Below are positions 3,153 through 44,761 of a stretch of 64,000 nt of DNA, piece by piece. This DNA comes from Escherichia phage OSYSP: the sequence record MF402939. One strand, written 5' to 3'. The number at the start of each line of letters is the position of its first letter. The first letter of the stretch is position 1. The translations under genes and the position numbers were made by a program. A model generated the notes under the pieces. It saw nothing but the letters and a program-made list of their open reading frames with translations, did no database searches and was not told where the DNA came from.

Positions 3153-4971
3153 GACACTAAAATTTAGTAACGTTATGTCTTACGGTAAGGACATCGTAAT
3201 TCATTTCGATAAGAATCCAGTTACTCAACTAATCGGTGGCAATGGGCTAGGGAAATCTACTATCGCCACGGTTATAGAAGAGCTGTTCTATAATAAGAAC
3301 TCACGTGGTATTAAGAAAGATGCTCTGTTCTCTTGGTCTTCTCCGAAAAAAGAGTATGATATGCACGCTTACTTCTCAAAAGATGAAGATGAGTATGAAT
3401 TGCATAAAGTAGTTAAATCAACTGCTAAGGTTACACTCATTAAGAATGGAGAAGATATTAGTGGGCATACGGCAACCCAAACATATAAGATGATTGAAGA
3501 AATTATGGGGGGTGACTTTCAAACATTCACCAAACTGATTTATCAATCAGTGGGTTCTAATCTAGACTTCCTAAAAGCAACAGATGCAACACGTAAGGCT
3601 TTTCTTGTTAACTTGTTCAATCAAGAGCAATACAAAGAAATGTCAGAAACTATTAAGGCTGACCGTAAAGAAATAGCAAATACCTTAAATAATTTGCAGG
3701 GCCAGATGGCTGTAATTACGAAAATCCTTAATGGAAAAAATAATCTAGGAACTTTGCAGGAACCTGTAGAGGTGCCGGAGTTTGATGAAGAGCCATTAGC
3801 ACAAGAACTTACTGAATCGAAAATTAAGGCGGCATTAGCCAAGTCTCAAGAGGCTAATATTACTAAGTTGCGTAATTTGGACAAAGCTGTACAAGTTGCC
3901 GAACAATCTTTCGAACCTTTCAAAAATTTGCCCGCGCCCACCGACCAAAGTGAAGAGATCTCGAGTGTTACGCGTGACCTAACGATTGTGACCTCACGTG
4001 CGAGCGAAGTTAAGAAACGTTATCAGAAGTTCAAGCAAGAGGCTTCAAATACTGAATGCCCTACTTGCGGTACTCATCTGGATACAACTGCTGCCCAAAA
4101 AGCAATGGATATGGCTAGAACAGAATATGATCCTCTGTTCAAAGAGAAGCAATCTCTTGAAGCTAAGCTAGAACAGTTGAAGAAAGAACAACTTGAGTAC
4201 GTTGCGTATACTAGAGCAAAGGATGCTTTGGATAAAGCGGTGGTAGCTAGAGACGAGTTCAAAAATTCAATGAGTGATGCTTCTTTTGAAGAACTCAATG
4301 TGCAAATCCTACAGGTGCAAATCCGACAATTAGAACAGGAAATCGCTGATGGCCGCTCTAAGGTTGCAATTGCCAAAGAGCATAATGCAAATGTCGAATT
4401 AGCCAACGCAAAATATAAAGCGAAACTAGAACAGATTGAGAAAGCTGAAGCAGAAATGTCTGAGATTACTTCCAAACTTGATGGAGTAGCCGAAGCTGTA
4501 GCTGATCTTGATATTCTAATTGCTGCTTTGAAAAATCTGGTGGGATATAAACTAGAGCATAGTGTGAAAGTATTCGAAGAATTAATTAATAAATACCTTT
4601 CTATTATGACTGGAGGTAAATTCGCACTTGGATTTGAACTTGATGAAACGAAGTTACAAGTAGTAATCTTCAATGATGGAAATCGTACCAGTATGGAGAA
4701 CTGCTCTACTGGTCAGCAAAGTAGAATTAATCTAGCAACCCTGTTAGCTATTCGTATGCTGTTAACATCTATTAGTAAAGTTAATATTAATCTTCTATTC
4801 CTTGATGAAGTAATTAGCTTTATTGATACGAAAGGACTTGATACTCTCGTTGAACTATTAAATGAGGAAGAAAGTCTAAATTCTATCATTGTTTCTCATG
4901 GGCATACGCATCCATTAGCTCATAAGATTACTGTCAAAAAAGATGCAGAAGGATTTTCCTACTTAGAATAA
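3133..4971 (+). CDS. SbcC/Rad50-like ATPase with coiled coil and zinc hook
   Basis: Start taken at MSKITIK (ATG 3133) rather than the track ATG at 3031; Walker A GGNGLGKST, CPTC hook motif in a long coiled-coil region, signature-like STGQQS, Walker B LLFLDEV. Confidence 0.85.
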   Translation: MSKITIKTLKFSNVMSYGKDIVIHFDKNPVTQLIGGNGLGKSTIATVIEELFYNKNSRGIKKDALFSWSSPKKEYDMHAYFSKDEDEYELHKVVKSTAKVTLIKNGEDISGHTATQTYKMIEEIMGGDFQTFTKLIYQSVGSNLDFLKATDATRKAFLVNLFNQEQYKEMSETIKADRKEIANTLNNLQGQMAVITKILNGKNNLGTLQEPVEVPEFDEEPLAQELTESKIKAALAKSQEANITKLRNLDKAVQVAEQSFEPFKNLPAPTDQSEEISSVTRDLTIVTSRASEVKKRYQKFKQEASNTECPTCGTHLDTTAAQKAMDMARTEYDPLFKEKQSLEAKLEQLKKEQLEYVAYTRAKDALDKAVVARDEFKNSMSDASFEELNVQILQVQIRQLEQEIADGRSKVAIAKEHNANVELANAKYKAKLEQIEKAEAEMSEITSKLDGVAEAVADLDILIAALKNLVGYKLEHSVKVFEELINKYLSIMTGGKFALGFELDETKLQVVIFNDGNRTSMENCSTGQQSRINLATLLAIRMLLTSISKVNINLLFLDEVISFIDTKGLDTLVELLNEEESLNSIIVSHGHTHPLAHKITVKKDAEGFSYLE

Positions 4972-4974
4972 AAC

Positions 4975-5457
4975 ATGGCTGTAGATAGTAGAGAGAAAGG
5001 TAAACGTGGTGAATATCAGGTAAGGGATATTCTACGTGAGCGTACAGGTCTTGAGTGGGAACGTGTTCCTGGCTCTGGTGCTTTTGGCCAGAGCCACGGA
5101 CTGAAGGGTGACATCTACCTTCCACCACAAAGCGGACACATTAGTAAATACTGCTTCGAAGTTAAGTGGTATAAAGATGATAATATATCAAGTAATTTAT
5201 TTAATGTTGGTGAATCCACTCTAGAGAAGTGGTGGCAGCAGTGCTCACGTGAAGGTGAGCAGATGAACTCCAAACCTGCATTAATATTCAAAAAAGACAG
5301 AGGACAGTGGTTAATAGCTTTGGATAGCTCAGACCCGATGGTTGACAACTTAATGAGTCGTACCCATATGGTGTTAAATAAGAAAGGCATGGAAATCGTA
5401 ATCGGTTTATTTGAGCCGTGGCTACATAATGCATCTGTTGAGGACTTAATTAAATAA
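4975..5457 (+). CDS. Putative PD-(D/E)XK nuclease (possible junction resolvase)
   Basis: GD...FEVK arrangement typical of PD-(D/E)XK cores; location between SbcC-like and flap endonuclease genes. Confidence 0.55.
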   Translation: MAVDSREKGKRGEYQVRDILRERTGLEWERVPGSGAFGQSHGLKGDIYLPPQSGHISKYCFEVKWYKDDNISSNLFNVGESTLEKWWQQCSREGEQMNSKPALIFKKDRGQWLIALDSSDPMVDNLMSRTHMVLNKKGMEIVIGLFEPWLHNASVEDLIK

Positions 5458-7052: not shown

Positions 7053-9962
7053 TTATGAGTTATCTGGCTTAATGAGCTCACTCACAAGTTTTTTCAGTTC
7101 GGTTAATTCTTGCTCAAGTTTGTTAACTTTATCAGCTTGATAACGAAATGCACAAGCTAAATCCGCCATAATTACGTTATTATCAAGAGCTAATGTATCG
7201 TCCGCTTTATCAACAACAATTTGACGGTCTACATATTCTTCACCTTCTTCATTAACACCTATAACATCTGCAAAAATATCCCCGCCAGGAATTAATTTTA
7301 CATATTCCGGGTCTATTTTTAGTAGGTCTTGGGCTATTAAACCAAATCGCTGGATGTTGCTTCCATTGTATTTAAACATTGTAGGCAGCCACTGCATAAC
7401 GCGATCATAGCTTTCTTTTCCATCTGTATAAATTATATCATGCTTTAAATCTCTGTCAGAGTTGGCGGCCTTTTGAAAAATGAAATTTCCACTTGATGAC
7501 CATGTAGTTATATCGTTTGATGCTGGCTGAAACTGGAAGTTACAGAAAAAATTGCCATCACCACGAAGCCTTAACGAGCAAAAAGGCCAAGCATTATTTC
7601 CCTGTGGGATAAGACCCCAAGTTGCACGAATTGGATAACCACCAGTTGATTGTGTACCCCATGAAAGTCCAGGCGCCCATCCACCATCATTGTTAGGAAT
7701 AATCTCGCCCCAAACAAGAGCATTACCCCAATAGTTAGGATCATCCCAGCCCATTTGTTGGGTTTTGCCAGTGTATTGGGCGGAATGAGTTCTGCCGTCA
7801 GGGTAAAACTTGTGCATATAGGCCTGTATCCCTGCTTGATACAATTCTATTCCAAAAGATTCAATGTGTGTGTCGCCTCTTCTGATTAAACCAGCGATAG
7901 CGTAATCGTCATACCAATTGTAACGACTTACACCAGTCCATGTGTTTATGGGTGGATTCATGGTTGAAAATAGTTGTGACGCATTGCGTTCATTCCCGTC
8001 TGCATAAATACCAGCCCCCGGAGCTAATGAGATTGATTTTGCTCCTGAAAAAGTACCATTTTCATTAAATTGATAATAGTGAAACAAGTTATTATGAAAC
8101 ACACCTATTGTATGTTTTCCTACGCCTACTTGAGTTTCGAAATAAGACTGAGAAGAACCAATATCCTCGCCTTGTGTGTTCTTTAATTTTGAATGGTATA
8201 TACCTGCGTTTGCAGTATTTGCATTTTCCGTTTCATTTTCAACATTAAGGCTTAGAAATTTTGGTGCATGTTTTTCGCCAAGTCCTATATTGTTTCTAAT
8301 ACCATTCGCATCCTTAGCACCCGTACCACCAAATTGAATACCTAGTGGTAGCCATTGATTGGTTGTAGCATCATAAACGCCCCAATGATCCCCACCATCT
8401 GGAATGGTTAGATACTTGTTTTTATTTGGGGAATATAAAACTGTTTCACCAGAAGTCTGAAACAGCCTATCAACTCCTAAATTATATCTAGCACCTTCAA
8501 GTGTATCCGCTCCAGTACCACCAGCAATAATTGATAATGGAAGAGATTCCCATGAGATACCATCACCATTTATGTTTTTCTGGAGTACAATAAGCCCATC
8601 ATCTCGCATAACAAATCTATATAATCTATTATGCGAGTATAAAAAAGTATGAACCCCATCCTGCACAAGTGAGTCTATAAGGAGCGTCTGACGAGAAGCA
8701 TTAATATCCGACAGATCTGAAAGATTATTTTCTTTTAGTAACGATTTACCAATAATACCTTCAGCTTTTCCAGCAGCCACTTCTGCACGTCCAGCGTCGG
8801 TAGATGCGCTTTGTGCGCTACTAGCAGCATTACTAGCTTGTTGCCCGGCCTCAACAGCACTGTTACCCGCTTGTGTAGCGGAAATAGCAGCGGCGTCTTT
8901 TAGCACGGTAGTTTCGGACACAGCGGCATCCTTAATTGCTTGCGTCTCGCTTACTGCACTATCCTTAATAGTCTGTGTGTCAGACTTTAATTTTTCAACA
9001 TCTGCTTTTAAAGCTGTTGTTTCACCTACAGCGGCATCCTTAATTGCTTGCGTCTCGCTTACTGCACTATCCTTAATAGTCTGTGTGTCAGACTTTAATT
9101 TTTCAACATCTGCTTTTAAAGCTGTTGTTTCACCTACAGCGCTATCTTTAATTAGTTGAGTATCTGATTTTAGTTGCTCAACATCTGATTTTAAGCCTTG
9201 AATAGTGGTTACTGACTGACTAGCTGAGGTTGCAGAACTAGCTGCGTTAGTCTCACTATCTTTGGCTTTAGTCTCACTAGTTTTAGCATTTGTTTCACTA
9301 GTTTTAGCATTTGTTTCAGAGGTTTTTGCAGCAGACGCTGATGTAGCAGCTTGTGTAGAGAATGTTTCCGCCTCATTCCTAAAACCACTGGAATCCGCAG
9401 CGGAAGCGGCAGCATTAGTCTCACTGATTTTTGCTTTATCTTCACTAATTTTTGCAACAGCAGCAGATGCAGCAGCATTAGTCTCACTGATTTTTGCTTT
9501 ATCTTCACTAGCCTTTGCATTAATTTCGCTAGTTTTAGCTTTATCTTCACTAGCCTTTGCATTAATTTCGCTAGTTTTAGCTTTATCTTCACTAGTCTTT
9601 GCATTAGTTTCGGATATTTTAGCTGCTGCAGCGGATTCTGCAGACTTATTGGCTGACGTTGCGGACTGAGTAGCAGAAGTAGCTGATTGGGTAGCCGATG
9701 CTTCAGAAGCTTCCGCGGAAATCGCAGCTTCCTGTTCAGAATTCTTAGCATTAAGCTCTGAAGTCTTAGCAGCTATTTCAGAATCTTTTGCAGCCGCAGC
9801 AGATTTAGCAGTGGCCTCTATAGAAGATACTAACTCATTAGCAGTAATAGAGCTAATAGAATTTCCAAGAGTTACTGTGTATCTAGGAAATTTACTAGCA
9901 GTAGCTTTAGTATCATCAATATTTAATATTTGTTGTACAATAATCTTAGTAGTTATTGCCAT
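7053..9962 (-). CDS. L-shaped tail fibre protein (pb1-like) with C-terminal intramolecular chaperone domain
   Basis: 969 aa; Ala/Ser/Thr/Lys-rich repeat region encoded by tandem DNA repeats; C-terminal segment resembles autocleaving chaperone domains of fibre proteins; first gene of late module as in T5. Confidence 0.75.
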   Translation of the reverse strand: MAITTKIIVQQILNIDDTKATASKFPRYTVTLGNSISSITANELVSSIEATAKSAAAAKDSEIAAKTSELNAKNSEQEAAISAEASEASATQSATSATQSATSANKSAESAAAAKISETNAKTSEDKAKTSEINAKASEDKAKTSEINAKASEDKAKISETNAAASAAVAKISEDKAKISETNAAASAADSSGFRNEAETFSTQAATSASAAKTSETNAKTSETNAKTSETKAKDSETNAASSATSASQSVTTIQGLKSDVEQLKSDTQLIKDSAVGETTALKADVEKLKSDTQTIKDSAVSETQAIKDAAVGETTALKADVEKLKSDTQTIKDSAVSETQAIKDAAVSETTVLKDAAAISATQAGNSAVEAGQQASNAASSAQSASTDAGRAEVAAGKAEGIIGKSLLKENNLSDLSDINASRQTLLIDSLVQDGVHTFLYSHNRLYRFVMRDDGLIVLQKNINGDGISWESLPLSIIAGGTGADTLEGARYNLGVDRLFQTSGETVLYSPNKNKYLTIPDGGDHWGVYDATTNQWLPLGIQFGGTGAKDANGIRNNIGLGEKHAPKFLSLNVENETENANTANAGIYHSKLKNTQGEDIGSSQSYFETQVGVGKHTIGVFHNNLFHYYQFNENGTFSGAKSISLAPGAGIYADGNERNASQLFSTMNPPINTWTGVSRYNWYDDYAIAGLIRRGDTHIESFGIELYQAGIQAYMHKFYPDGRTHSAQYTGKTQQMGWDDPNYWGNALVWGEIIPNNDGGWAPGLSWGTQSTGGYPIRATWGLIPQGNNAWPFCSLRLRGDGNFFCNFQFQPASNDITTWSSSGNFIFQKAANSDRDLKHDIIYTDGKESYDRVMQWLPTMFKYNGSNIQRFGLIAQDLLKIDPEYVKLIPGGDIFADVIGVNEEGEEYVDRQIVVDKADDTLALDNNVIMADLACAFRYQADKVNKLEQELTELKKLVSELIKPDNS

Positions 9963-10384
9963 TATCTAGTTACCCCATCACTGATAAATACTTTACCCTC
10001 CATTATACGAAAAGAACTAATAGCTGATCCTATGACGTCTCGTGTCATAATTATATCATAGTATCCTGCAAAACGTTGGCGAGGGTTATACTTATCTCTC
10101 TCTTTGGTAGCTTTTTCGCCAATATTATCTACTGCCTCTACAGGTAAACTTATAGCTATAGCACCTTGAGCAGCATCAGTAATTTTAGTAGTAAAAGATG
10201 CCAAAGTTTCCGCATTCTCATCAAGCCCGGCCTTTATAGTACCCCTTAGGGAATACCCTGTTAAGTTAACAGGGGTATTTGTAGGTGGATAAGTACTATC
10301 ATCAACATCTAAGAATTGCATCATTAGACCATAAGGTACTTTCTCATCTATCACTAAGTCTATAACTCTATTTTCAGTACTCAT
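9962..10384 (-). CDS. Tail collar-like protein (T5 p132-like)
   Basis: 140 aa, same length and position as T5 p132. Confidence 0.55.
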
Positions 10385-39633: not shown

Positions 39634-39914
39634 GTATAAATATACAAGGTAAAAAGGTAGTGTTAACAACTGCAATCAATTTTAAGCGGCCTAAAACGCT
39701 TTCTAACGAGCTAAATGCGGTGGGGTAATATTAAAGTAAAGTCTTCACCCGTCGCCCTGGTGGCTTCACTGTGTTTTGCTCTTTATTGCACCGCTGCGCG
39801 GTTAGCATAAAACTAGGCGCTAGGCAAGGAAAATAAAAAGGTAAAATAATATTTGCCCCTAGAAAGAAAATACCTTTATCATTCACTCACCGATTAACGA
39901 GGGAGGCCGAACAA

Positions 39915-40907
39915 ATGAGGCTTTATAAACCAGATAACGCAACCGTCTTAAAAGGTGCATTGCGCAACCTGCTGGATGGTAGCAGAACAACCAGCATTAA
40001 ACATTTTGTTTTCAATATTGAAACACTTCATCGTAATTTTCTTGATGATTACGATGCTTATAATATGAATAGTTTTCTACCGTTATATAATCAAGGGGCA
40101 ACGCTTGTTTTATATAATCAGGAATCTCACTTGCTTACTAGTCGAGGGCCAGATACTGATTTTATTATAGTGAAAGGCAGTACAGTAAAAGCCTATGATG
40201 CGGGGGCGGGCTTAGAAGTTTTCACGATAGAAAATTATGAGCCTTATGATAAGGATCTTTATGACGTAGAAAATTTTCTCGATTCATTTTGGCGTTATTT
40301 ATCAATTGGGTGGAATCGATCAGATTATCACGGGTATCGTTTTGCGGCTATAATGGCTTTTGATGATAACGGTAATTTTTTGCTACCGTCGGAATTATAC
40401 CCGTATGTATATAATGATTTAATAGAGGAGGCTGGTTTTACTTTCTGGAAAGATGAAGATCAGCCTATTGACAACACGGAAAAACATGCTGTAAATTCTA
40501 ACACTCAAAGCGTTAACACTCAAACTACTGAAAATAAAGGGAAAAATACTATGACCAAGATCGCTAACATCGTTGCCGCTAATAAATCCGCTGTTGTAAA
40601 CGCTGCAAAACTGGAAGCGGGTAAAATTGCACTGACTCAAATCACGAAAGTAGCGGCTAAAAAACCGCCGTTTATTATCAAGGGTTATATTGATACGCCG
40701 ATTGGTCGGGTAGTGATTGCCAACCTGCTGAGTGTAGCGGTTGACCAGTACGCCCCGAGTAACCAGAAAGCGAAAGCGGTAGCAGGAGCGGCTATGGAAG
40801 CGGCAATGCTAGAAATGGTGCAAAGTTTTAACATCGCTGAAATGATCGATGAAATGGTAAAAGGTATCGATATTTCTACTTTCACCGTTAACAACGAAAG
40901 CGAGTAA
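39915..40907 (+). CDS. Hypothetical pre-early protein (330 aa), two-domain
   Basis: Strong RBS GAGGGAGG; N-terminal domain, Asn/Thr/Gln-rich linker, Ala/Lys-rich C-terminal domain; no family recognised. Confidence 0.6.
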   Translation: MRLYKPDNATVLKGALRNLLDGSRTTSIKHFVFNIETLHRNFLDDYDAYNMNSFLPLYNQGATLVLYNQESHLLTSRGPDTDFIIVKGSTVKAYDAGAGLEVFTIENYEPYDKDLYDVENFLDSFWRYLSIGWNRSDYHGYRFAAIMAFDDNGNFLLPSELYPYVYNDLIEEAGFTFWKDEDQPIDNTEKHAVNSNTQSVNTQTTENKGKNTMTKIANIVAANKSAVVNAAKLEAGKIALTQITKVAAKKPPFIIKGYIDTPIGRVVIANLLSVAVDQYAPSNQKAKAVAGAAMEAAMLEMVQSFNIAEMIDEMVKGIDISTFTVNNESE

Positions 40908-40971
40908 TAATATTAAGCGGGGATTGTTACCCCGCTTTAATGTTCCCTTGTTAATTAATAGGAGGCTAATT

Positions 40972-41466
40972 ATGTCAGAAGAAAAATATGGCTTCTCACT
41001 GGGAGAAGTGAGCACGGCTAAACACGATATGATCATTTTGGTCGATTGTCATACTGGCTATTGCGGAGAAGGCTGGACGGAGGAACATTTTGTTCCAGCT
41101 GGCTGTAATCTGGACGCTTTCGCTCAGGAAATGGCTGTTGATAATGCTTCTCGTTTCGGTAGCGATGGCTATGAAGACGAGGAAACTGGCGAATGGTATG
41201 AAAATGAAAACGTATACGCTAGTCTTTATCATTATCAATTAAGTAAATCCGGCGCATATGTAAACGGCGGCGATCCTATTAATTCCATCATGAGATTAAT
41301 TATTAAACATGGTGGCGTCGAGATAATTGATAACAAAGCGGTAATATACGCAAACCGATTAAAACAGCTTGTTTATATTCCTGATAATACCCGATGGGAT
41401 GAATATGCTGTTTTGCATGACGAATTGAAACGATGTTTCAATATTGAATCCTTACAAGTAGTCTAA
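40972..41466 (+). CDS. Hypothetical pre-early protein (164 aa)
   Basis: Start at MSEEKYG with RBS AGGAGG (the track ORF begins at 40924); acidic, Cys-containing. Confidence 0.55.
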   Translation: MSEEKYGFSLGEVSTAKHDMIILVDCHTGYCGEGWTEEHFVPAGCNLDAFAQEMAVDNASRFGSDGYEDEETGEWYENENVYASLYHYQLSKSGAYVNGGDPINSIMRLIIKHGGVEIIDNKAVIYANRLKQLVYIPDNTRWDEYAVLHDELKRCFNIESLQVV

Positions 41467-41571
41467 TGTAAAGTTTTGTAAAGGTCGCCTTTTATGGTGG
41501 CCTTTTTTGTTATAATGCTTTTACACCAAAACGGTGGATTGAAAATTTTCCCAAAAATTTGGAGGCTTAAA

Positions 41572-41802
41572 ATGGTTGCATACTCTTCTGCTAGTCATCT
41601 GTTTACCGCGCAAGGCTGGGTATCTAATCGCGTCATCATTCATGAAATGGTGCAGGAGTTCGGCATTGCTAAAACTTACACTACCATTCAGGAACTATAC
41701 AACGCCGATAAAATCGATCAGCAAACGGCTGGCTTTTTGCTGGATACCCTGAAGGCGGAACATTGCACCAAAAAACAAGCCGCTAAAATTGTTTTAATGT
41801 AA
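41572..41802 (+). CDS. Hypothetical pre-early protein (76 aa)
   Basis: Start at MVAYSSA with GGAGG RBS (the track ORF begins at 41494). Confidence 0.5.
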   Translation: MVAYSSASHLFTAQGWVSNRVIIHEMVQEFGIAKTYTTIQELYNADKIDQQTAGFLLDTLKAEHCTKKQAAKIVLM

Positions 41803-41848
41803 TTAATAACGGGGCGTTATTTTCGCCCCGCTAACTAGGAGAATGAAA

Positions 41849-41998
41849 ATGGTTATTTTTCGAGCTATTCTGGCAGGTATCTTGGGCGCTATTTTATCGT
41901 TGTTTGCAATAGCTTTCGGTGTTCACGCCGTTATTGTCGGCGCGGGTATCGCCGTTTTTTCTTATCTGCTGGGCTGCATGATTAGTAAAGGAGAATAA
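41849..41998 (+). CDS. Small membrane protein (49 aa)
   Basis: AGGAG RBS; two hydrophobic stretches; below the ORF-track length cutoff. Confidence 0.45.
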   Translation: MVIFRAILAGILGAILSLFAIAFGVHAVIVGAGIAVFSYLLGCMISKGE

Positions 41999-42000
41999 AA

Positions 42001-42213
42001 ATGATCCGCAACGTTTCTCTTGCTCGTTCGAAAGGCTTTAAGCTGGTGGACGTTAACACGTTCGAGCGTGAAGATTGTAAAATCGAATATGTAGCGCGGA
42101 ATAAAAACGCCTTTCGTGTTACCGAGAAAAAATTCGATAAGCGCGGCAACGTGGTCGCTGAAACGGTTAAACATTTTGCCACCTTTTACGCTGCGTTTCG
42201 TGGGGTACTATGA
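42001..42213 (+). CDS. Hypothetical pre-early protein (70 aa)
   Basis: AGGAG RBS; basic; ATG 3 nt after the previous stop. Confidence 0.5.
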   Translation: MIRNVSLARSKGFKLVDVNTFEREDCKIEYVARNKNAFRVTEKKFDKRGNVVAETVKHFATFYAAFRGVL

Positions 42214-42335
42214 AAAGCGTTATCATTATTAGCCTTGCAATGGTTGGCGGTTTTACCGCCACCTTATTTAAAAATGATCCCCTTTTACTGGGGATTTTTA
42301 TGCTTTTATCTGGCTATCTGATTGGGAGGTTATAA
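42210..42335 (+). CDS. Small membrane protein (41 aa)
   Basis: ATG overlaps previous stop (ATGA); hydrophobic throughout. Confidence 0.4.
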   Translation: MKSVIIISLAMVGGFTATLFKNDPLLLGIFMLLSGYLIGRL

Positions 42336-42336
42336 A

Positions 42337-42681
42337 ATGGTAATTTATGAAGGCAATCGTTTTGTTGCTAATTGCCGTCCTGCATTGCTAGCAAATTACT
42401 TAAATCAGCTTTCACCAGCTTATAAGGGCGTTATTAATATTTATGAGGGCAAAGTGCATTATAAGGTTAATGCGGTCGTTGCCCGTGAACTAGCGTTTCA
42501 ATTTTTGACCTTTGCATCTTGTGACGTTCAGGTTATGGGTGAGGCGTTAATTGCAGAAAATGAAGATGATTTTATTAACATTTTTCGCAAGATATGCACC
42601 GAGCGCCTGATCATGAAAGGCGCTTATATTCAATCCACTGCGGATAGTATTGAAACAGCGTTTCGAAAGGTGGCGCAATGA
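42337..42681 (+). CDS. Hypothetical pre-early protein (114 aa)
   Basis: Start at MVIYEGN with GGGAGG RBS (the track ORF begins at 42322). Confidence 0.5.
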   Translation: MVIYEGNRFVANCRPALLANYLNQLSPAYKGVINIYEGKVHYKVNAVVARELAFQFLTFASCDVQVMGEALIAENEDDFINIFRKICTERLIMKGAYIQSTADSIETAFRKVAQ

Positions 42682-42836
42682 AAAAGTTTTTAATAGCTGG
42701 CATGTTTCCGTTGTTGCCTTATGTAATTTGCTGGGCTTTATATGCTCATGGTGCTAGTGTTCCCGGTGTGGCTTCATTTGGTGTATCGGCGGGCTTTCTA
42801 GCTGGACTATTGGCAAGCGTATATTTACGCAAATAA
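42678..42836 (+). CDS. Small membrane protein (52 aa)
   Basis: ATG overlaps previous stop (ATGA); two hydrophobic helices. Confidence 0.4.
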   Translation: MKKFLIAGMFPLLPYVICWALYAHGASVPGVASFGVSAGFLAGLLASVYLRK

Positions 42837-42855
42837 TTAATAACGGAGCGTTATT

Positions 42856-43050
42856 ATGAGCAATAAAATTGTTGTAACCAAAATCAGTACAATGGTTGAT
42901 GTTTTTTACGTGCCCGATACGCCGGAGAATCGGCGAGCGGTCGAGCGTGGCGAGTATGATAAAGTGATTTATGATCACGATGGTTACTATCAACATTTGG
43001 TGGATTCCTACGGGGAGGAGGAAAAAATCACGCATCGACTACCAGACTAA
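42856..43050 (+). CDS. Hypothetical pre-early protein (64 aa)
   Basis: Last gene of the rightward operon; preceded by palindrome AATAACGGAGCGTTATT; acidic. Confidence 0.5.
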   Translation: MSNKIVVTKISTMVDVFYVPDTPENRRAVERGEYDKVIYDHDGYYQHLVDSYGEEEKITHRLPD

Positions 43051-43090
43051 TAATCACGGGGCGCAACTACCAGGGAGTGCCCCCAATTCT

Positions 43091-43113
43091 CAAATGAGAA
43101 TCATTCTCATTTG
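43091..43113. repeat. Perfect 23-bp palindrome CAAATGAGAATCATTCTCATTTG
   Basis: Read directly; same core as the 43447-43608 repeat family. Confidence 0.7.
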
Positions 43114-43128
43114 ACTGCGCCCGCGATG

Positions 43129-43187
43129 GTTAGCCTGCTAATGATTAGGGTGTTACGTGTCGCCTTGTGTGATCGTTAGCAGGCTAA
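43129..43187. repeat. 13-bp inverted repeat GTTAGCCTGCTAA / TTAGCAGGCTAAC with 33-bp spacer
   Basis: Read directly; could form a large hairpin. Confidence 0.6.
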
Positions 43188-43334
43188 CTAATTTTTAAGC
43201 CTCCTCCAATTTTGCCCTTGTTTTAGTACCCCCACCAAAATTAAACGCGTTAGAATGCGATCTAGGACGTTTTAGCGGTATACTAGAATTATTCACTACA
43301 TAGGAATACTGTATATTTATACAGTAGGATATCC

Positions 43335-43416
43335 TGTGGATAAGTCTGTTAATAACGCCTCAAAATGGCTAGGATTCTGTCAAATCAAATCGTGCTGTTA
43401 ATAAGTCTGTGGATAA
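43335..43416. promoter_or_regulatory. Two consensus DnaA boxes (TGTGGATAA) in repeated context CTGTTAATAAGTCTG
   Basis: Exact reverse-complement matches to TTATCCACA at 43335-43343 and 43408-43416. Confidence 0.55.
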
Positions 43417-43446
43417 CTTAAATAACAGTGTTTCTCACTTCCATTC

Positions 43447-43608
43447 TTAAATGAGAATCATTATCATTCGCAGTCCACTGTCTAACCGATAATCATTTCC
43501 TTTCTTAAATGAGAATCATTTCACTTTTTGAATAGTTCTCATTTCCTTTCTTAAATGAGAATAATTATCATTCGCATTCCACTTCTTAAATGATAATGAT
43601 TCTCATTC
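43447..43608. repeat. Five copies of 24-bp motif CTTAAATGAGAATCATTATCATTCG (one inverted), Fur-box-like
   Basis: Copies at 43447, 43504, 43550 and inverted at 43584, plus palindrome at 43091; core matches 15 of 19 positions of the E. coli Fur box GATAATGATAATCATTATC. Confidence 0.6.
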
Positions 43609-43637
43609 AAAGTCGCAGGGCAATTGCCCTGCGCTTT

Positions 43638-44239
43638 TGTGCAAATCCGACATTGCTCCACGGGTGTTACGTGCGGGCATGTATGTGCGAATCCGACAAT
43701 TTTTGGTAGTGTGCGAATCCGACCCTAAAAACTTTTGTGATGTGCGAATCCAACAATGAATTTTCCCAAAAACTCCAGCAATCACGAACTGCGTTCGAAT
43801 CCTGTGGGATATGTGCAAATCCGACACGGTTTTTCTAGGATTAAGATGTGCAAATCCGACAAGATTTTTGTGACTTCGATGAGAGGGTGTGTGATTGTAT
43901 AGGTTTGAGGAGAAGATGAGAGAGCGAGAAAAGTTTGGGAGGCTAGAAGGATGCGGGCGCAGGATTGGTGCGGAGCACCTGATTTGCGGGGATTTTGGGG
44001 AAGAGTTGAGATAATTTGGGAAGATTTGAGATAGGTGCAGAAAAAGTAAAATTTTATTAGCAAAATGGGGCAAAATAGCTTGACAAGTGAAAATTTCTGT
44101 GGCTCTAAAAACTCAGGCAATCATGGGCCTTCGGCCCGAAATAATGCTGCCATTTTCAAGAGATTATATGTTCCTAAAAACTTAGGCGTTTGTGCAAATC
44201 CGACCATAAATTTCTAGGAACACAATGTACAAATCCGAC
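43638..44239. repeat. Nine direct copies of 15-bp motif TGTGCRAATCCGACA
   Basis: Copies starting near 43638, 43684, 43711, 43741, 43812, 43847, 44190, 44225 and a degenerate one at 43785; motif has partial dyad symmetry. Confidence 0.65.
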
Positions 44240-44280
44240 AGTAATTTCTGGAAATGTGTTTTCAAAAAATGTCTCCTAGA

Positions 44281-44340
44281 AATAACCGCCCTCCCTATAA
44301 CCGCCCTGTATTAACCGCCCTGTATTAACCGCCTATTGCT
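44281..44340. repeat. Four tandem copies of about 14 bp AACCGCCCTNTATT
   Basis: ATAACCGCCCTCCCTATAACCGCCCTGTATTAACCGCCCTGTATTAACCGCCTATT read directly. Confidence 0.6.
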
Positions 44341-44761
44341 AGAGTTTCTAGGAATATGAAAACCGCCTGAGTTGACTAGAGAAACAGATTTAAAGTTTAA
44401 TGTAAACTCTAGAGTTAGTGCTCAACTATTCCTAGAAACTTAGGAGTCTAGAAGAAAGTGTTGTGCCATCCTAGCAGATGAGCGGCAACAGGTGTATCAT
44501 CTTGAACACAAATATTGCCTTTAAATATTTTTAGTTATTTAAAAGTAAATATACCCCCATTTCATGAGAGCTTACTCGTGGGGCGCGTGAGTATTACGGA
44601 AGACTTAGTAATTAGATCTATACTCGTGCTGTCGCAACGTATAGACGTAATACTAAGTGTAATAATCATCGCCCCTAGAGTTCAAAACAAGAGTTGTTTT
44701 TAATCTATGAGATTATTATAACATGTGCCGCAATGAGTTGTCAAGAAGATTTTGTTAATGT

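Follow-up and report, generated by a model that had tools for sequence, protein, structure and literature searches.

The window considered here is a stretch of 64,000 nucleotides from Escherichia phage OSYSP (sequence record MF402939), and the subject of this report is a block of nine open reading frames (ORFs), designated O1 to O9, that occupies positions 39915 to 43050 on its + strand. The block is very probably the rightward half of the pre-early, or first-step-transfer (FST), gene set of Tequintavirus, comprising orthologs of genes of the T5.011-T5.017 series together with three accessory genes and making up, in two or more transcription units, an array of host-takeover effectors. A reading of the DNA made from its letters only had put the block forward as an undescribed module. 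That description does not hold, since the genes are annotated as T5.011-T5.017 in T5 records, were screened for toxicity in 2021 and again in 2026, and include one whose product has been defined biochemically. The block is already known, and novelty is limited to the nested and polymorphic architecture of O1, the correction of a misplaced nickase label, and a structural model of O2 for which there is no solved relative.

A 4-kb query around the block matched 444 phage records at 80-95% identity, which marks the window as T5-like, and the closest records are those of the Tequintaviruses HASG4, EASG3 and chee24 at about 92-94% identity. In chee24 and T5 the counterpart of the block lies within the annotated left terminal repeat (the FST DNA), upstream of the injection stop signal (iss). 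Orthologs of T5.011, T5.012, T5.013, T5.014, T5.015 and T5.017 occur in that order within this long terminal repeat, between the divergent promoters and iss. Position, orientation, and the promoter and terminator/P5 elements are shared with the T5.011-T5.017 cluster of NC_005859, and six of the nine genes are orthologous to its members at 67-99% identity. The block differs from the T5 cluster in possessing O2, which T5 has lost, in carrying O6 between the counterparts of T5.014 and T5.015, and in having O8 in place of T5.016. No ortholog of T5.016 is present, and O8, though it sits in the same slot, is unrelated to it; T5.016 is itself rare, occurring in less than 15% of genomes (bioRxiv 10.64898/2026.04.02.716235). 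The suggestion of the sequence-only reading that these genes are pre-early, and so among the first DNA to enter the cell, agrees with both the terminal repeat and the position of iss.

The same reading expected functions in host takeover, and published work on T5 bears this out. Mahata et al. cloned T5.002 to T5.017 in 2021 and found 008, 011 and 015 to be toxic; the T5.015 protein binds Ung and nicks the abasic sites that Ung generates in uracil-containing host DNA, and both replication and division are arrested (PMC8201957). Annor et al., who in 2026 used the NC_005859 numbering, reported that dmp, A1, hdi, hegG, 011, 013 and 015 are toxic, that expression of T5.011 leads to disorganization of the nucleoid, and that over-expression of T5.013, whose product has two transmembrane (TM) domains, results in a lysis-like loss of cell integrity (bioRxiv 10.64898/2026.04.02.716235). 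Pre-early transcription and 10 pre-early proteins have been detected in another Tequintavirus, Bas33 (PMC13250531).

Gene calls, transcription units and genomic setting

All nine ORFs called from the sequence are present on the + strand, with products of 330, 164, 76, 49, 70, 41, 114, 52 and 64 amino acids (aa), and their orientation is indeed opposite to that of the neighboring genes, which are on the - strand on both flanks. Conservation across T5-like genomes had been proposed as a check on the block, and relatives proved to carry all nine genes in intact form, while ratios of nonsynonymous to synonymous change (dN/dS) of 0.01-0.32 over the nine ORFs, the tiny ones included, indicate purifying selection. 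Each of the nine matches an existing PHROG family. The genes had been described as tightly packed, which is true of O4 to O8, where successive gaps are 2, -4, 1 and -4 nt, and roughly true of O9 (19 nt), but not of O1, O2, O3 and O4, which are separated by 64, 105 and 46 nt. Likewise, most of the genes have the strong Shine-Dalgarno (SD) sequence that had been ascribed to all of them. Pairing energies are -11.4 kcal/mol for O1, -10.2 for O2, -9.3 for O3, -7.3 for O4, -8.7 for O5, -10.9 for O7, -7.2 for O8 and -6.4 for O9, and O6 is the weak member at -5.4 kcal/mol. Translation of O6 is probably coupled to that of O5 through an ATGA overlap. The start of O4 is placed at the ATG at 41849, which gives the 49-aa product, given that its SD energy is -7.3 kcal/mol versus -1.8 kcal/mol for a start at 41843. 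No sequence motif had been recognized in any of the products, and this stands for the other members but not for O1, which belongs to the Pfam family DUF7566. Searches of Pfam, NCBIfam and PADLOC with the proteins of the block gave no match besides DUF7566, and sequence searches of the PDB with O1, O2, O5, O7 and a profile of the C-terminal module of O1 gave no match.

Transcription of the block as a single operon, as had been claimed, is contradicted by terminator-like hairpins after O1 and O2 and by a conserved extended -10 element before O3, and the block therefore contains at least two transcription units. A promoter-like site for O1 (TTGCCC-18-TATCAT, 39853-39882, + strand) was found by consensus scan in the divergent pre-early control region. 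Its TTGCC and TATCAT elements and the leader downstream do not vary among T5, HASG4 and the Epseptimavirus Stitch, and the T5 record annotates a promoter at the homologous position; the T5 promoter upstream of 011 has been described as experimentally characterized (bioRxiv 10.64898/2026.04.02.716235). O1 is followed by a hairpin at 40915-40937 (+ strand; AAGCGGGG-ATTGTTA-CCCCGCTT) that is predicted to be a weak terminator; the records of T5, HASG4 and Lindwurm likewise mark a putative rho-independent terminator at the corresponding position. Beyond O2, at 41480-41516 (+ strand), a GC-rich intrinsic terminator hairpin (41480-41505) with a T-run extending to 41510 is followed by the extended -10 element TGTTATAAT (41508-41516). 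Since the T-run overlaps the extended -10, a single stretch of ~35 nt both ends transcription of the upstream unit and starts that of the downstream one. This stretch is invariant in T5, HASG4 and Stitch, and record AY587007 annotates both a terminator and the pre-early promoter T5P5 at the site. In the arrangement proposed here, unit 1 would run from the first promoter through O1, and perhaps O2, to the terminator, unit 2 would run from the overlapping extended -10 promoter through O3-O9 and stop in the iss region, and both would be transcribed by the host RNA polymerase. The conserved promoter elements are of the sigma-70 type.

To the left of the block are late structural genes followed by homologs of A1, A2 and dmp, all on the - strand, and to its right are early genes, also on the - strand; the block itself reads rightward from the divergent promoter region towards the iss repeats. 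Because the gene order is late, terminal repeat, early, the assembly behind the window must have merged the two terminal repeats or circularized the genome, and the virion would carry the block twice. The iss region (43078-44450) is non-coding and rich in repeats and palindromes, with families of direct and inverted repeats, and corresponds to the T5 iss at position 9140-10149. It holds a terminator-like hairpin at 43614-43633. Other features of the region are at least six AAATGAGAATCATT-type units in direct and inverted orientation, which we take to be similar to the Fur box, six copies of TGTGC(A/G)AATCCGAC, and two DnaA-box-like TGTGGATAA motifs at 43336 and 43410.

O7, O5 and the abasic-site nickase label

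O7 (42337-42681, + strand; dN/dS 0.03-0.10) encodes a protein that is 91% identical to T5.015 over all 114 residues and is found at the same position. The activity was demonstrated for T5.015, and by this full-length orthology O7 is the ortholog of the Ung-dependent abasic-site nickase, with its own activity assigned by way of T5.015. A PDB search with O7 matched no solved structure and no nuclease motif was detected in the protein. Distant homologs of O7 occupy the same position in Sugarland and DU_PP_V.

Public annotation differs from this assignment in that it places the function on the neighboring 70-aa gene, which in this phage is O5 (42001-42213, + strand). O5 is a basic protein (isoelectric point, pI, of 10) and the ortholog of T5.014, with 98.6% identity, and it is the most constrained gene of the block (dN/dS 0.01-0.11). 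The label "endonuclease nicking abasic sites generated by host Ung" is attached to this 70-aa family in RefSeq and in PHROG 4227, and the RefSeq entries that carry it are T5.014 (NC_005859), chee24 gp012 (NC_047885), DT57C gp010 (NC_027356) and Stitch12 (NC_027297). Three lines of evidence indicate that O7 is the nickase and that O5 is mislabelled. The synonyms given for DT57C equate T5.014 with T5p013 and ORF015, and T5.015 with T5p014 and ORF016. In UniRef the 70-aa protein is entered as "ORF015", and it is the 114-aa T5.015 protein that bears the name "DNA-(apurinic or apyrimidinic site) endonuclease". Finally, 015 was toxic and 014 non-toxic in the hands of both laboratories (PMC8201957; bioRxiv 10.64898/2026.04.02.716235). 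The numbering of AY587007 is shifted by one because T5.011 is split in that record, which adds an ORF, and the label probably slipped onto the 70-aa gene because T5.014 is named ORF015 there. The wrong nickase label is now propagating into new genomes.

Two other soluble products of unit 2 are also orthologous to T5 proteins. O3 (41572-41802, + strand), with 76 aa, is the ortholog of T5.012 (86% identity; dN/dS 0.02-0.16), which was non-toxic in both screens (PMC8201957; bioRxiv 10.64898/2026.04.02.716235). O9 (42856-43050, + strand), an acidic protein of 64 aa, is the ortholog of T5.017 (89% identity; dN/dS 0.02-0.20).

The O1 family and its C-terminal module

O1 (39915-40907, + strand) encodes the 330-aa ortholog of T5.011 (77% identity; dN/dS 0.09-0.11) and matches PF24450 (DUF7566) over residues 2-329 with a score of 371.5 bits against a gathering cut-off of 27. 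A literature search for DUF7566 returned no paper naming the family. An exhaustive search for the O1 family gave 676 representative clusters at 50% identity. The last ~120 residues of O1, referred to here as the C-module, are the only part of O1 shared by 126 of the 150 top representatives. The C-module invariably stands at the C-terminus, followed by a median of 10 residues. The regions that precede the C-module fall into at least 45 unrelated clusters among 101 representatives, and some of these N-terminal heads are HIRAN domains. Stand-alone homologs of the C-module, ~120 aa in length, were found as well (P0145, P0208, P0245; L039). Three divergent C-module proteins used singly as queries for related loci gave no match, and a 5-sequence alignment did give matches. 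O1 has diverged from T5.011 far more in its N-terminal half than in the C-module, and among T5-like phages generally the head is far more variable in amino acids, with dN/dS similarly low for both parts.

The C-module is predicted to be helical and is rich in alanine, and its 118 codons (40551-40907, + strand; dN/dS 0.03-0.13) may be translated as a separate product. Based on position and conservation, a functional internal start at the ATG at 40551 is probable. The window DNA at the module boundary reads AAAGGGAaaaatactATG, in which a candidate SD, AAAGGGA (40536-40542), lies 9 nt upstream of an in-frame ATG (40551-40553, Met213), the two together spanning 40536-40553 on the + strand. A methionine is found at the boundary in 75% of 129 fusion-type representatives versus 20% expected. 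An SD (GGA) core lies at -14 to -5 of the boundary ATG in 13 of 14 independent lineages, compared with 11.5% of codon positions (P<5e-6). Relative to the boundary methionine, the frequency of glutamate or glycine reaches 0.57 at codon -4 and 0.48 at codon -3, against a baseline of about 0.1, and a [KQERT][EG] dipeptide occurs at -6 to -2 in 81% of cases versus 15-25% elsewhere in the same linker. Further upstream, at 40468-40497 (+ strand), is a candidate internal promoter (TTGACA-18-TAAATT) found by consensus scan, whose function is predicted from sequence. Its TTGACA is invariant in 7 phages, its -10 element still resembles that of a promoter where the encoded amino acid has changed (TACAAT in Stitch), and the synonymous diversity of O1 is lowest at residues 187-221, that is, at this site. 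Wild-type 011 could not be cloned, and a synonymously recoded copy could (bioRxiv 10.64898/2026.04.02.716235). Taken together, the embedded promoter, SD and ATG signals and the failure to clone 011 suggest that the C-module is also made alone, and the nested product, if real, offers a possible explanation of the reported cloning failure.

It is also conceivable that the boundary methionine and SD are the fossil of a gene fusion, that internal initiation no longer occurs, and that O1 makes a single protein. The existence of stand-alone modules makes such an origin plausible. In addition, SD pairing at the junction is of moderate energy (-4.3 to -5.9 kcal/mol), and in a control in which the sequence was recoded synonymously with the amino acids fixed, the SDs were equally good and the difference not significant (combined p 0.79). 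These observations count against internal initiation, and since the recoding control was null, selection at the level of codons is not claimed and the case for a nested gene, in which start codon and properly spaced SD are both conserved, rests on the position-specific enrichment of glutamate and glycine. That enrichment is confined to codons -4 and -3. The interchange of glutamate with glycine is what GAR and GGN nucleotides at SD distance would lead one to expect and is unlike a requirement at the protein level or a protein linker. Depending on the protein, the boundary methionine lies 6 to 20 residues from the invariant NK motif and is therefore not a fixed structural residue. A fossil would also have had to survive next to at least 45 unrelated head families and in hundreds of 50%-identity clusters. 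T5-like phages moreover retain TTGACA-18-TAnAAT upstream with depressed synonymous change, and 011 could be cloned in recoded form but not as wild type. A fusion relic is therefore the rather less likely account, and internal initiation within O1 is preferred.

The sequence-only reading took O1 to have two domains. The architecture of the family agrees with this, but the structural model lends no support, as the AlphaFold2 (AF2) model, made with a 19-sequence alignment, has a predicted local distance difference test (pLDDT) score of just 33.9. The low confidence of the model is explained by the listed homologs, all of which are >85% identical, and because of it the role of the C-module as a "handle" is a guess; both facts speak against the bipartite scheme outlined next. 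O1 would consist of a fast-evolving N-terminal head that confers specificity and a 118-aa helical C-module that would also be made alone from the embedded promoter, SD and ATG, and the free C-module would probably act as a common handle for oligomerization or localization. As a tentative proposal, somewhat short of an even chance, O1/T5.011 could be the founding case of a large class of phage pre-early proteins (DUF7566, at least 676 clusters) in which a hypervariable effector head is joined to a separately translated module that serves as scaffold or handle.

In-frame nested phage genes with internal initiation include lambda C/Nu3, T7 gene 4A/4B and phiX174 A/A*. O1 resembles these in being a long ORF with an in-frame SD and ATG, and, as in C/Nu3, a shared C-terminus could allow co-assembly of the two products. 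It differs from the classical cases in that its second product is putative and in that its module is joined to dozens of unrelated heads. Polymorphic effectors and toxins, in which a conserved delivery or anchoring domain is combined with a variable effector domain, are a second parallel. The O1 family similarly joins one module to many unrelated domains, some of them DNA-end-binding HIRAN domains, and its T5 member is toxic. In the O1 family, however, it is the C-terminal part that is conserved and the N-terminal part that varies, the proteins are intracellular products of phage genes, and neither a secretion gene nor an immunity gene is evident.

Several records of O1 homologs call for comment. 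In DT57C (NC_027356, 2575-3110), O1, O2 and O3 are absent and the rightward pre-early block begins at the T5.013 homolog, which indicates that a natural Tequintavirus can do without O1, "core" gene though it is. The homologs in NC_105514.1 (JLBYU40) and PV016700.1 (HMD-P5) are labelled, one of them "putative DNA N-6-adenine methyltransferase" and the other "putative virion structural protein"; neither label has domain support, with DUF7566 the sole match. The two T5 records, AY587007 (418-1427) and NC_005859 (6495-7505), differ by a frameshift in T5.011, which in AY587007 is split into ORF011 (245 aa) and ORF012 (77 aa). The frameshift stems from a difference between strains or else from a sequencing error, and ORF011/ORF012 was rejected as an annotated instance of the nested ORF since the split is a frameshift difference between T5 records.

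Accessory genes and the nature of the array

The gene content of the block was compared among genomes that include T5, chee24, HASG4, Stitch, Lindwurm, Kamaji, Sugarlandvirus and Hongcheonvirus. O1, O2 and O7 are syntenic in Sugarlandvirus (37, 38 and 34% identity, respectively) and in Hongcheonvirus (45, 35 and 28%), and Kamaji retains O1 and O2 (40 and 27%). Judged by synteny and sequence identity, O1-O2-O7 is the ancient core of the block across Demerecviridae, and T5 has been secondarily reduced by the loss of O2. O3, O5 and O9 are a set kept within Markadamsvirinae. The remaining positions are variable. The slot after O3 holds O4, a 59-aa T5.013 variant, or nothing (Stitch); that after O5 holds O6, an unrelated 33-aa hydrophobic ORF (Stitch), or nothing (T5, chee24, HASG4); and that after O7 holds O8, T5.016, a soluble 71-aa protein (Lindwurm), or nothing.

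O2 (40972-41466, + strand) encodes an acidic protein of 164 aa (pI 4.55; 28 D/E versus 12 K/R) that has no T5 counterpart and belongs to a family restricted to Demerecviridae, with homologs in 344 sequenced phage records. Its invariant motifs are NGGDP and RLKQLVYIP. The homologs P0014-P0016 carry a zinc-ribbon-like insertion of ~20 residues (CPEC...C..C) in the acidic loop, which is short in the O2 of the window. The AF2 model of O2 is confident (pLDDT 87.9; predicted template modeling score, pTM, 0.82) and has a mixed alpha/beta fold. An acidic protein that is encoded on the first DNA to enter the cell and is part of the conserved core invites comparison with DNA-mimic anti-restriction proteins of the Ocr/ArdA kind. 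Such a role is highly improbable for O2, given that T5 is insensitive to restriction though it lacks the gene, that Stitch carries O2 and Epseptimaviruses are reported to be generally sensitive to restriction-modification, and that the confident mixed alpha/beta model is unlike any solved structure. Comparison of the model with solved structures, DNA mimics included, revealed no similar fold, and O2 thus has neither the structural resemblance nor the link to restriction insensitivity that would place it among such proteins. In BFVD the model matched uncharacterized proteins only, and the significant matches came from T5-like phages.

The three short products that had been described as almost entirely hydrophobic are O4, O6 and O8, and each is indeed hydrophobic (grand average of hydropathy, GRAVY, 1.1-1.8) with two TM-like segments. 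O4 (41849-41998, + strand) is a 49-aa two-TM hairpin protein and the ortholog of T5.013 (67% identity; GRAVY 1.8; dN/dS 0.11-0.32), from which it differs by a 10-aa loop deletion. In chee24, a 197-nt unannotated gap (4805-5002) lies at the place of O4 and contains O4-like DNA (91% identity with 3 gaps by blastn), which may be a frameshifted or overlooked copy. O6 (42210-42335, + strand; PHROG 19184; dN/dS 0.14-0.27) is an accessory mini-membrane protein of 41 aa with no T5 homolog. It is found in 158 phage records, in which it is often unannotated, and its conservation can be followed by tblastn down to ~50% identity. O8 (42678-42836, + strand; PHROG 35622; dN/dS 0.03-0.07) is a rare accessory mini-membrane protein of 52 aa that is ATGA-coupled to O7, and it is present in only 41 phage records, all of them at least 94% identical. 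The three proteins were considered as possible paralogs, and this was rejected as their sequences are mutually unrelated. The neighbors of these genes encode no lysis-enzyme domain and the location is pre-early rather than late, so the genes do not resemble a holin/lysis cassette.

Genes of just 41-52 codons, of which O6 has a weak SD and is unannotated in many records, might be chance ORFs in the spacers between soluble genes. This idea is effectively refuted by conservation, selection and family membership: all three are intact in relatives and change mostly at synonymous sites (dN/dS 0.03-0.32), each has its own PHROG family, O6 is conserved over the tblastn range given above, and expression of T5.013 gives a phenotype. 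The proposal that the block is an undescribed anti-defense or host-takeover module, in which each soluble protein works with an adjacent mini-membrane partner, has more to commend it. The alternation of soluble and TM proteins is real from O3 to O9 in this phage and includes ATGA translational coupling, most members of the block have no known function, and the anti-restriction determinant of Tequintavirus, a gene still unidentified, is expected among the FST genes (PMC10644984). The pairs implied by the alternation are nevertheless contradicted by comparative genomics. Obligate partners should co-occur across genomes, but O6 and O8 are facultative, with 158 and 41 records versus about 450-500 for their neighbors. 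O5 and O7 are present without O6 in T5, chee24 and HASG4, O8 is missing beside O7 in T5, Lindwurm and Stitch, and O3 and O5 occur without O4 in Stitch. Since the slots are filled elsewhere by unrelated genes or left empty and no two of the three TM proteins are related, obligate pairing is contradicted and independent, swappable cassettes are favored. The cluster has, moreover, already been annotated and screened experimentally in T5, and a paired module is accordingly an improbable description of it.

On the preferred reading, the genes of the block encode an array of separate host-takeover effectors, each dispensable by itself, that do not make up a single functional machine. The array would enter the cell with the first 8% of the genome and would act before the remainder is injected. 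O7 would bind host Ung and nick the abasic sites that Ung makes, and O2, O5, O6, O8 and O9 would be accessory factors for host manipulation or anti-defense; an anti-defense role for some member of the block is possible. Early takeover arrays are known from other virulent phages, examples being the T7 class I genes and the early "moron" ORFs of T4. These share with the block strong host-type promoters and many small ORFs that are individually dispensable, several of them toxic when expressed alone, and differ from it in that T5-type delivery is physically staged, with the block entering with the first 8% of the genome. Certain points weigh against the preferred reading. The region from hegG to 017 was removed in the T5 multi-deletion mutant DLDR, which is viable on laboratory E. 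coli and forms smaller plaques (bioRxiv 10.64898/2026.04.02.716235), and because this region is dispensable the takeover functions are conditional at best. The functional data come from T5 orthologs, and the promoter and terminator calls are consensus matches backed by conservation.

The block holds several candidates for pre-early functions of T5, namely insensitivity to restriction, the block to Dam/Dcm methylation, inhibition of RecBCD, and protection of phage DNA from A1. Among the candidates are O2, O6 and O8, which cannot have been tested in T5 because T5 lacks them. The C-module of O1 is common to hundreds of divergent phage proteins, and its reading as a scaffold, if true, would account for the toxicity of T5.011, its nucleoid phenotype, and the wild-type gene that resisted cloning.

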